Assembly (NCBI GenBank): GCA_051362555.1
Contig: CM120640.1
Span: 21,762,001-21,826,000, forward strand
From: Lingula anatina
Lineage: Eukaryota > Animalia > Brachiopoda
Direction of reading: 5' to 3'
Length of the DNA: 64,000 bases
Below the pieces are notes generated by a model. That model was not told the DNA's origin. It did no database searches and saw only the letters and a list, made by a program, of their open reading frames with translations. The translations under genes and the position numbers were made by a program. Below are positions 30,913-33,900 of the stretch, one piece after another (the first letter of the stretch is position 1; every line of letters starts with the position of its first letter).

Positions 30913-33900
30913 TCACCTCATTTTGTAGTGTATGGTATCTGACATCTCTGAAAGTTCCCCTTTAAAATCAACATCAATTGTGAAGTCCAGATCACGCTGA
31001 AAAATAAAAAGGAACACAGTGAACATTTCTTCTCCACACTTGTGGATGGAACCTTACATAATATGAGATAACAAGCTGTAGTATGAAGTGTTTTAACGGT
31101 CAAGGTCATCAGGTAATATTTTACTTAATTAAAGATCTGAGTCACAAAAGTGACTGTAGCTTATGTATTAATCTCACTGTGTTAGAGGCTTAATCAACCC
31201 CACCCCAGCCCCCCAAAAAAGTCATTTTGCAATAAATCATTAGTTTTCCATGATAATTACATGATTGTCTTTGTTGGGTGTGACGCAGAAAGTGCCCATA
31301 ATCTCCTCTCCCTTCTTCACAGTCATGTAATCATCAAAGTAGAACACAGTCTGCTTCCAGTGAGTGTAACGAGCCTCAGGGGCTGAAATTATGATTTTTT
31401 TACAGCATTATATTTAACTATTTTAACTATAATCAGTCTTTCAAATAAAATAATAGGCTGTTATCAACATGAAGTACTTTGCAGTATTGAAGCAAGTGTT
31501 TAATACAATAAATTAAGTTAACATGCTGAAATTGACAACTTGTATCCAATAAGACTAAAAACAATCAAAATTTTCTCTAAAGGGTTTGGTTTTAAAACAC
31601 AATGAAGTCCCTTTAAAAAATTTATAGTAGCAATGTAATTTTATTCTTTTGTAAAACGAGTCTCTGGTTCAAATTAAAAAAAAAAAAAAAGCTGTTAATC
31701 ATAATCTGAAAAACAATTTTCACCTAAATCAAGTTTAAAAGATGTGGGAACCTGTTACCTGTGGAAAACCCTGTTCTCTTGTGACACTTTGTGAACTCAA
31801 TGTTGAAGAAAGTGACAAAAGCTTGGATGTAGTCATTTCTCTTGCACTGGAGATGGAAGGGAGCTTGGAACGTCAGATCTTCAGGCTGGACAGTGTAGAT
31901 GTCTACTTCCTAAAAGTACAAAGAATCGACATCGAAAAGATTGATACAAGTCACCAAAGTTTTCTTTCTATTTGGAATAAAAGATGTACAATAGTTTTCT
32001 GACTTGTCACTTGAACCAATGTTTATCAGGAACAAATCTTATGGAAAGAATTTTTTGTTGATACTAGCTCAAGCTTATGAATATTGTCCAATTTCACTTA
32101 GTCCCAAAGTGCCCAGGAAACGTGGAGTCTCTTTTGTATTTGGATTCCATAGAAATGTTGTTGTACAATCATTCTATCATTCAATTTTCAGGGGTATGGA
32201 AGGAAGGGGGGGGAGGTAGGCACAGGGATTACATTTGGTTTAGAAGGAAACATTTTTTAAAAATCCCCTACTTCCCATTTATGCTTGTGTACTTGTTGAA
32301 ATAATTCATCATGGTGAGAGGCATTGTTTTTGATTTTTTGAAAAACTATAAAACACCACAATGTCCAAATTTCTGTTCTAAAAAATATTTAGTAAGACGA
32401 AGTAGAAGACATCACCTTGCCCCATGTTCTTTATCACCACATACCTTTATAAGGCATGAATTTGTTACCACCAGCCGCCCATTGACTTTGTCAACAATGG
32501 GTTCCCTTATGGCGACCTCCTTGATGCAGCTCATGTCAAACCCATACACTGTCTCCCACCCTGAATTATAATCACAAGCGCAAATCAGAATTATGGGTAA
32601 GCCCAGTGTATCATGGGATATGCTCCCAGAGATAGGTATTGATTTGCTGCTGGTGGCCTAGTGAGATCCCCAAGTGACCAATCATGGGCAGGCTGCAATT
32701 ATTACCTTAACTAAGCAAGAATTGGTGACCACTTGTTTGGGATCCACAACATCCACTAAAGGTTCAGTAATGGCAACTTTGCGAATACAGCTCATATCAA
32801 AGCCATACACACTGTCCCACCCTAAAAATGGATGAAAACTGAATGAAACTTAAAAATAAAAAAAGCTTTCTTCCAAACAAACAAACAAAAAAGTTTATTC
32901 GTCAAAATAAATATCCCTTTGGTCTTACTATTTATAAAGTCATATGAGGGAGTATACATATGTTGTAAAATTCCAAATATTATTCCATGTATATTTCCTG
33001 TAGAGCAAATTTTGTACAAATTAAATCATTTTTCCAAACTTACAGTTGATTTTCTCATCCTTGTACTGTCTGTCTTCAATGGCACATATGTACAATGTAG
33101 CCCTGTCTGGGAATATGAGACCTCCTGGAGCCTGGAACATAGGTACAGGTAGTCATGTTATATATGAACTGGTTAACAACAGAAACTATACAATAGGAAC
33201 ACATAAGAAGTTTCCAATACATTTCCTTATTTCTCAAAAGAGACAAATTTTGATCTTTCATCAAGCAGTCCTTTCTCATTTGGGTCTGTTCATTTAAAGT
33301 TAATGTGGGTAATTTTTGGTTCCAAAAATGATTCTTGATAGATTAACATCAGGCAGAAAAGTTAACCTTTGATATCAAGTGGAGTGTACTGAAAAACAAG
33401 TGTTGTGCACCAATAAATATCAATATTTGCCCTAAAAATTGAAAACATCATTTTCTTACGAAATGGTCAAAATCTCTTTCATTGAAAAAACAAAATAATG
33501 AAGATGATTGATCTGAACAATCAAAGGTAATCTTACATCCTAGCTAGAAAACAGAAGTCAAAGTAGATCAAATTGTAGACAAAAAAATATCCAAAACTGA
33601 GAAGTTTACACAAACCAAATGCTTACCAGCCATTTGTCTCTGGCAAACAGGACTGTATTCAACATGGATTCATAGAAGAGACAGTACCCCATCCACTCAC
33701 TGATAATTATGTCCACTTTTTCAATCCCTTCTGGCAGCTGAACCTCTTCAACTTTACCCTTGACTAAGGTAATCACTGGAAAGTCAATAACAGTGATATG
33801 ACAGCTTTGAATATGACATTATTCAGAATGACCAGGCTGTGCACACTGACAGTGAAAAAAAAAATACAGTGTGCACTATAGAAAACACATTATGTAAAGA

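Follow-up and report, generated by a model that had tools for sequence, protein, structure and literature searches.

Does the brachiopod Lingula anatina make two versions of PRMT1 by exchanging one exon for a homologous neighbor, and if so, which property of the enzyme changes with the exchange? The question is raised by a 64,000-nucleotide (nt) stretch of DNA (assembly GCA_051362555.1, contig CM120640.1, positions 21,762,001 to 21,826,000), referred to here as the window, in which all coordinates are given. On its minus strand, a full model of the L. anatina PRMT1/8 gene was built with 11 coding exons running from 35771 to 30913. Two of these, exon 7a (32706..32821) and exon 7b (32445..32560), are homologous, are each 116 nt long, and are separated by an intron of 145 nt (32561..32705). 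They have intact AG/GT ends and the same phase and are identical at 75 of 116 nt. Each encodes residues 195 to 233, of which 27 of 39 are identical and 12 differ; a different codon is used for 14 of the 27 residues in common. Every figure that a preliminary description of this DNA had given for the exon pair was rechecked and found correct. The protein containing 7a (the a form) equals L. anatina RefSeq isoform X1 (XP_013417121.1) in every letter, and that containing 7b (the b form) equals isoform X2 (XP_013417122.1), so both isoforms were previously present as automatic RefSeq models. No other PRMT1 exon has a second copy within the window. We read the evidence as a whole, with a probability of about 0.62, to mean that each transcript takes one of the two tandem exons and that the resulting proteins have the same dimer contacts and a different outer surface, likely altering regulation or binding and not the choice of dimer partner.

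The reading frame constrains how the two exons can be used. Inclusion of either 7a alone or 7b alone gives a protein of 351 amino acids. Because 116 nt cannot be divided into whole codons, transcripts with both exons or with neither carry early stops: the former would encode 242 amino acids, with the stop 359 nt ahead of the last junction, and the latter 194 amino acids, with the stop 271 nt ahead of it. The argument that only one-or-the-other splicing yields full-length protein is therefore sound, and the frameshifted transcripts are likely removed by nonsense-mediated decay.

Splicing was examined in raw reads from eight of the nine listed Lingula runs, aligned to 31650-33250, with 6 to 30% of each run used. 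A joint was counted only when it had three reads from two start places, so that rarer joints could escape. Under these conditions, 906 junction reads were collected, of which 266 joined constitutive exon 6 (33044..33131; 88 nt) to 7a, 91 joined exon 6 to 7b, 448 joined 7a to constitutive exon 8 (31759..31909; 151 nt, placed by the gene model and by these RNA joints), and 101 joined 7b to exon 8. All four joints were present in all eight runs. Beside these reads from mature RNA, neither the 7a-7b joint nor the 6-8 joint rose above the listing threshold. The mutually exclusive use claimed in the preliminary description is thus borne out by junction counting for 6-7a-8 against 6-7b-8. That description had also considered that 7b might be a dead duplicate without junction reads into 32445-32560; this is contradicted by 192 reads joining into or out of 7b, found in eight of eight runs and in three studies. 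It is virtually certain that this is a real regulated or variable exon pair.

The relative use of the two exons varied among studies. Exon 7b accounted for 61 of 602 junction reads in study P1, for 25 of 120 in P2, and for 106 of 184 in P3 (10% to 58%). By run, its share ranged from 9 to 61%, with 7a the major form in five of the eight runs. The higher share in P3 persisted when each junction side was taken separately. Fixed variants at 31889, 32520, and 32725 set P3 apart, so the effects of tissue, stage, population, and library on this share cannot be separated. The only variant seen within 7b is the one at 32520, which is synonymous and lies in the codon for Lys208, so that the lysine is kept. 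Exon 7a has two amino acid variants in P3, a polymorphic S198T at 32812 that yields the 7b residue and the fixed T227S at 32725.

Comparison of the two exons with each other showed that synonymous sites are saturated (22 of 25.5 sites differ; proportion of synonymous differences [pS], 0.86), whereas 19 of 88.5 nonsynonymous sites differ (proportion [pN], 0.21; Fisher P = 1.6e-9). When neutral evolution was simulated with at least 0.5 substitutions per site, 0 of 20,000 copies stayed free of stops while retaining 26 of 38 residues. Saturated synonymous sites combined with a low pN mean that both exons have been maintained. By these measures, both copies are under purifying selection and the duplication is old, in agreement with the earlier proposal of an old duplication that is not decaying. 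Exon 7 was then compared with that of 114 of the 119 other proteins in the homologue set, leaving out one fused model and four proteins without the anchor motif; the doubled Ephemera model P0030 was excluded as a likely fused gene model. Mean identity was 34.1 of 39 residues to 7a and 25.4 of 39 to 7b, none of the 114 homologues was nearer to 7b than to 7a, and the 7b residues R213, I216, K219, G222, R223, and L224 each occurred in 0 of 114. Since homologue identities favor 7a, that exon is the copy typical of the family, and 7b has diverged.

Selection on both exons could also be met by another account, in which both exons work and are nearly equivalent, 7b being kept foldable through its 10 to 60% inclusion in an essential enzyme while its surface changes are drift. 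Inclusion alone would suffice for purifying selection, avoidance of the dimer interface (described below) is what tolerated drift would be expected to produce, several 7b residues are present in distant PRMT1s, and a 7b orthologue was not found in the other species compared. This account fits poorly with the residues that 7b alters, since L216, V219, D221, P222, K223, and Q224 are held in 106 to 114 of the 114 close homologues. It also leaves aside the strong differences in 7b inclusion among studies and the retention of PRMT1 exon pairs in other lineages, including a pair common to two diverged species. Of the alternatives, near-equivalence of the exons survives best, and we consider it unlikely without being negligible. 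A change in the outer surface of the enzyme that has consequences for its regulation or binding remains the explanation that we favor.

The position of the exons in the protein bears on which property is changed. Published work is cited here and below from the consulted parts of each source. The dimerization arm of human PRMT1 comprises residues 204 to 234 (PMC8592882), which align with Lingula residues 184 to 214. Exon 7 encodes 20 of these 31 arm residues; the first 11 are encoded by exon 6. Five of the 12 exon differences lie inside the arm and seven after it. The preliminary description, which had taken the exon 7 segment as the dimerization arm plus the following strand, was therefore right about the region and wrong about its extent. 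In the cryo-electron microscopy structure of human PRMT1, the arm contacts its partner through W215, W216, V219, Y220, F222, D223, and M224 (PMC12272085), and all seven of these residues, mapped by alignment, are identical in 7a and 7b. With respect to the filament interfaces (PMC11681865), none of the 16 residues of interface 2 falls within exon 7, and the single residue of interface 3 that does, a cysteine, is unchanged.

AlphaFold2 models of the a and b forms had the same secondary structure over residues 195 to 233, and a complex between the two forms was predicted. The predicted a/b complex scored 0.81, against 0.00 for the best of three controls, although this pass may reflect likeness to solved structures because the PRMT1 dimer is a textbook dimer. 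The runs shared at least 49% of contacts, with partner pLDDT (predicted local distance difference test) values of at least 89. In calibration with microbial proteins, 51 of 78 solved pairs and 2 of 108 mismatched pairs attained the complex-score mark; with eukaryotic ones, 71 of 105 and 2 of 126, respectively, did so. The predicted interface names 12 exon 7 residues, and none of the 12 exon differences is among them (chance, 0.004). Within the helix at 205 to 212, residues 206, 207, 210, and 211 are named contacts and are unchanged, and the changes fall at 208, 209, and nearby 213. In these models, the exon differences likely face outward, including on the outer helix face of the arm.

The preliminary description had proposed that the exons are alternative dimerization arms and that the swap sets homodimer or heterodimer choice or oligomer state. 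A role in dimer choice could draw on the share of the arm that exon 7 supplies and on the five differences that it places there. Arm dynamics affect catalysis in simulations (PMC8592882), so noncontact changes could act indirectly. The proposal nevertheless finds no foothold in the interfaces themselves, where the published contacts are all identical, the filament-interface residues are unchanged, and none of the predicted interface residues differs. That the differences avoid the dimer interface argues against the dimer-choice model, which we regard as quite improbable. With high confidence, the dimer contact is unchanged between the a and b forms, and on the strength of the models the pair would be better described as having the same dimer contact and a different outer face than as alternative dimerization arms.

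The origin of 7b was considered next to its function. A boundary pattern search found 53 animal loci with the same intron-exon boundary, of which 27 span exons 6 to 8 and fall into 20 groups at 95% identity. A second exon 7 was found in none of the 53 loci, including 0 of the 27 spanning loci; no compared record is known to come from a brachiopod or phoronid. An exon tree was built on 39 columns, and none of its 27 inner branches was starred. Both a Lingula-only origin (P value of the approximately unbiased test [p-AU], 0.31) and a tree holding 7b with three fish rows (p-AU, 0.54) were unrejected. The latter would suit a model in which 7b is the relic of an ancient bilaterian pair whose b-like copy became fixed in chordates and disappeared from most protostomes, as would the 4 of 12 7b changes (E197, K208, E209, and I232) and the basic residue at 213 that are common to catfish PRMT1. 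The fish exons are nonetheless nearer to 7a (29 to 31 of 39 residues) than to 7b (27 to 29 of 39), two copies were absent from all of the spanning loci, and no other exon 7 swap was found in the wider set of 281 proteins described below. An ancient pair is thus very improbable. We rejected the fish matches as a sign of one, the fish exons being ordinary single vertebrate exons, and read the likeness between catfish and 7b as apparent convergence. Four divergent PRMT1-like proteins (P0009, P0013, P0019, and P0156) match 7b at residues 205 to 214, and their loop is the shorter one that the fish, hemichordate, and crinoid rows also have. Their grouping with 7b in the weak tree is probably due to long branches. 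An assembly artefact or dead duplicate, for which no supporting point was found, can be dismissed given 65% nucleotide identity, saturated synonymous sites, and the 7b junction reads in every run and all three studies.

If the dimer contact is constant, the consequence of the swap should lie elsewhere on the surface, and two features of 7b are candidates. The first is Lys208 (codon at 32520..32522), which aligns with human K228; this position is Arg in 7a and in 108 of 114 homologues. A bioRxiv preprint (10.1101/2024.06.18.599616) reports that acetylation of human PRMT1 at K228 by p300 leads to FBXL17-dependent degradation and that K228R lengthens the half-life of the human enzyme. The FBXL17 degron motif is given as IKxxxIK (PMC6162602), and its position falls entirely within exon 7. 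The second feature is the loop or short helix at 219 to 224 (32472..32489 in 7b), which follows the strand at 216 to 218. It holds 5 of the 12 changes (V219K, D221N, P222G, K223R, and Q224L), and the net charge of the post-arm segment goes from 0 in 7a to +2 in 7b. No role for this loop is assigned in the consulted passages of papers on PRMT1. We consider it somewhat better than an even chance that the swap has a distinct surface-borne regulatory or binding function, as predicted here. Acetylation-linked turnover is the best-named single candidate for that function and is itself doubtful.

Together, these data suggest the following mechanism. Splicing of Lingula PRMT1 takes exactly one of 7a and 7b, yielding two proteins of equal length, and a/a, a/b, and b/b dimers are all predicted to form. 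Exon 7b would be a derived, specialized copy whose outward changes place a lysine at the K228 position and make the 219-224 loop more basic, whereas 7a would carry the arginine that, as a substitution, stabilizes the human enzyme. The swap would then alter regulation of the enzyme or its binding partners rather than its dimer partner.

Several points weigh against this interpretation. On the side of splicing, nonsense-mediated decay is deduced from the gene model rather than observed, and the higher 7b share in P3 may stem from its population or library instead of regulation by tissue. Among 29 longer and 2 short candidates from elsewhere, none proved to be a 7b orthologue; 26 clusters were opened, and relatives inside 90% clusters could escape this search. 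In the structural argument, the chance of the differences avoiding contacts rises to 0.06 when the seven published contacts alone are used, and the outward orientation is read from absence in a contact list, in which an unnamed residue is not proven free. With regard to the degron, neither exon carries both lysines of IKxxxIK: 7b keeps the first and has Arg in place of K233, and 7a lacks both, with Arg and Thr instead. Exon 7a also has a lysine at 209, one residue later, which could serve instead, and the preprint, in which the first lysine is the decisive one, partly conflicts with an earlier study that favored K233. Finally, the clustering of changes at 219 to 224 is within chance (0.15).

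Features that could enforce exclusion were sought in the intron between the two exons. It has a G+C content of 0.45, compared to 0.25 to 0.35 in the other nine introns, and an AG-free zone of 60 nt, the longest of the ten. Pyrimidines occupy 9 of 16 positions ahead of the 7b acceptor and 12 of 16 ahead of that of 7a; this weaker acceptor fits the usual minor use of 7b and would be what makes the b form the minor one. Steric exclusion calls for a branch point at most about 50 nt from the upstream donor and for a sequence free of AG from there to the acceptor. Branch-point-like motifs, unmapped and identified by sequence likeness, are located at -38 and -25, which is some 107 and 120 nt away from the donor of 7a. 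By that threshold they are too far away for simple steric exclusion. Inverted repeats I6 and I15 resemble docking and selector pairs and did not exceed shuffled controls. Competing RNA structures likewise did not beat chance in an intron fold (P = 0.075) or in five duplex tests (P = 0.09 to 0.54) compared with shuffles.

Lingula appears not to be the only animal in which a PRMT1 exon is exchanged. When 281 stored proteins were compared for differences confined to one exon, single-exon swaps were found in exon 7 of Lingula, exon 6 of Mytilus, and exon 9 of Lineus longissimus, and no species besides Lingula had an exon 7 swap. The Mytilus swap changes five residues in the equivalent of exon 6, at the start of the dimerization arm. 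It is present in records of M. galloprovincialis, M. trossulus, M. edulis, and M. californianus/coruscus (isoform pairs P0189/P0190, P0191/P0047, P0308/P0076, and P0106/P0122), and two Mytilus gene models, P0037 and P0309, hold both versions in tandem. Mytilus exon 6 is likely a second, independent mutually exclusive pair, judging from these sequences. In Lineus, isoforms X1 and X2 (P0103/P0172) differ at 10 residues in the equivalent of exon 9, including those before the THW loop. The Mytilus and Lineus swaps are read from protein records.

Exon 9 of Lingula (31261..31382; 122 nt) encodes the THW loop. Tandem exon 9 copies were found in the DNA of 2 of 15 loci spanning exons 8 to 10, L021 (3526-3653 and 3799-3920) and L045 (1895-2022 and 2466-2587); L051 (3342-3469 and 3913-4034) is near-identical to L045. 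In all three, the copies are 128 and 122 nt long, with the same phase and intact AG/GT ends. The copies of L021 and L045 are orthologous, with 27 and 30 of 40 residues identical within type and 20 to 22 of 40 between types, and they match either Lineus form at 21 to 26 of 40. P0046 differs from P0053, P0054, and P0059 at four exon 9 residues; this difference was left out of the tally of swaps because allelic variation or sister species would account for it just as well. To our knowledge, PRMT1 isoforms otherwise vary mostly at the N terminus, and the other isoform pairs compared fit mainly N-terminal variation. The recurrence in Mytilus, Lineus, and others, with a different core exon each time, suggests that selection has repeatedly diversified a single invertebrate PRMT1/8 gene by splicing. 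A bolder proposal, which we hold to be rather improbable, is that PRMT1 is an unrecognized hotspot of convergent exon duplication, with at least three and probably four lineages swapping exon 6, 7, or 9 of the arm and barrel, and that the Lingula swap toggles an acetyl-degron lysine to give a stable and a destructible enzyme that could be mixed in one dimer.

The remainder of the gene was placed as follows. The coding part of exon 1 runs from the start codon at 35748..35771, and that of exon 10 runs to the stop codon at 30913..30996, both in agreement with the RefSeq protein. Between them, the model places exon 2 at 34895..34996, exon 3 at 34493..34648 with S-adenosylmethionine-binding motif I, exon 4 at 34233..34296, and exon 5 at 33627..33775 with the double-E loop, the motifs being assigned by mapping. 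Motif I (residue 70), the double-E loop (141 to 152), and the THW loop (290) were all found in the protein, and the Pfam PRMT_C score is 225 to 228 bits. The nearest solved structures are PRMT1 and PRMT8 (PDB 6nt2, 1or8, and 5dst), with 76% and 73% identity and TM-scores of 0.87 and 0.85, respectively. By its sequence, the Lingula protein is a type I PRMT of the PRMT1/8 type, with asymmetric dimethylation as the putative activity of each isoform. Annelids have one prmt1/8 gene (PMC12153100), and by analogy we assume a single gene in Lingula too.

Elsewhere in the window, a tetraspanin cluster flanks PRMT1 on both sides, with exon matches (Pfam PF00335) on the plus strand at 5565-5867, 15034-15423, 21108-21401, 26358-26639, and 53523-53843. 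One tetraspanin gene is duplicated in tandem (20342-24027 and 25626-29406), with 80 to 86% nucleotide identity, introns included. A repeat of 255 to 290 nt occurs in three copies, 83 to 90% alike, at 58695-60452. An open frame of 223 codons at 61921-62592 has no Pfam match and carries a Cys/His cluster that we take to resemble a SWIM-type zinc finger. It overlaps one arm of a 77-nt inverted repeat with 97% identity (61349-61425 and 61940-62016) and is possibly a transposon remnant.

The main asymmetric arginine methyltransferase, PRMT1 has a very conserved catalytic core and is a drug target. A pair of expressed forms with just 12 differing residues, which are predicted to lie on the outside, offers a natural experiment on the outer arm, the 219-224 loop, and the disputed K228/K233 degron. 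Homologous mutually exclusive exons form a recognized class in which the fold is kept and surface residues are varied (PMC7954323), and they have arisen convergently in different exons of one gene family, for example, in ion channels (PMC9741552). Neither PRMT1 nor PRMT8 matched in one supplementary table of a human catalogue (PMC8373072), in which the control PKM matched five times, and no PRMT is named in the consulted main text of PMC9741552. Among the matches listed, no title or abstract beginning described a swappable PRMT exon pair; subscription journals and bioRxiv supplements were outside this scope, and the pair may stand unremarked in splicing databases, one of which covers Lingula events (MetazExp, PMC8728262) and includes 16 Lingula runs with rMATS calls. 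The kind of event is well known, and what appears new is an expressed pair in PRMT1, without a PRMT precedent in the literature searched.

Like tandem duplicated exon substitutions such as that of PKM (PMC8373072, PMC9741552, and PMC7954323), the Lingula exons have equal length and the same phase, are used one or the other, and keep the fold, with variable residues that are likely on the surface. Unlike the catalogued cases, they sit in a housekeeping enzyme of chromatin and RNA proteins, in a brachiopod. With the human FBXL17 acetyl-degron, 7b shares a lysine at the K228 position and differs at K233, and 7a differs at both. As in vertebrate PRMT1 and PRMT8, the contact residues are conserved, and the protein has motif I and both the double-E and THW loops. 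In contrast, invertebrates have one prmt1/8 gene (PMC12153100), and Lingula varies the arm region by splicing. The closest counterpart within the family is the delta-arm splice form of human PRMT1 (Patounas 2018, as described in PMC8833605), in which the arm is removed and the enzyme is inactive. In both animals splicing acts on the exons of the dimerization arm, but in Lingula a homologue takes the place of the arm exon and every contact is kept.

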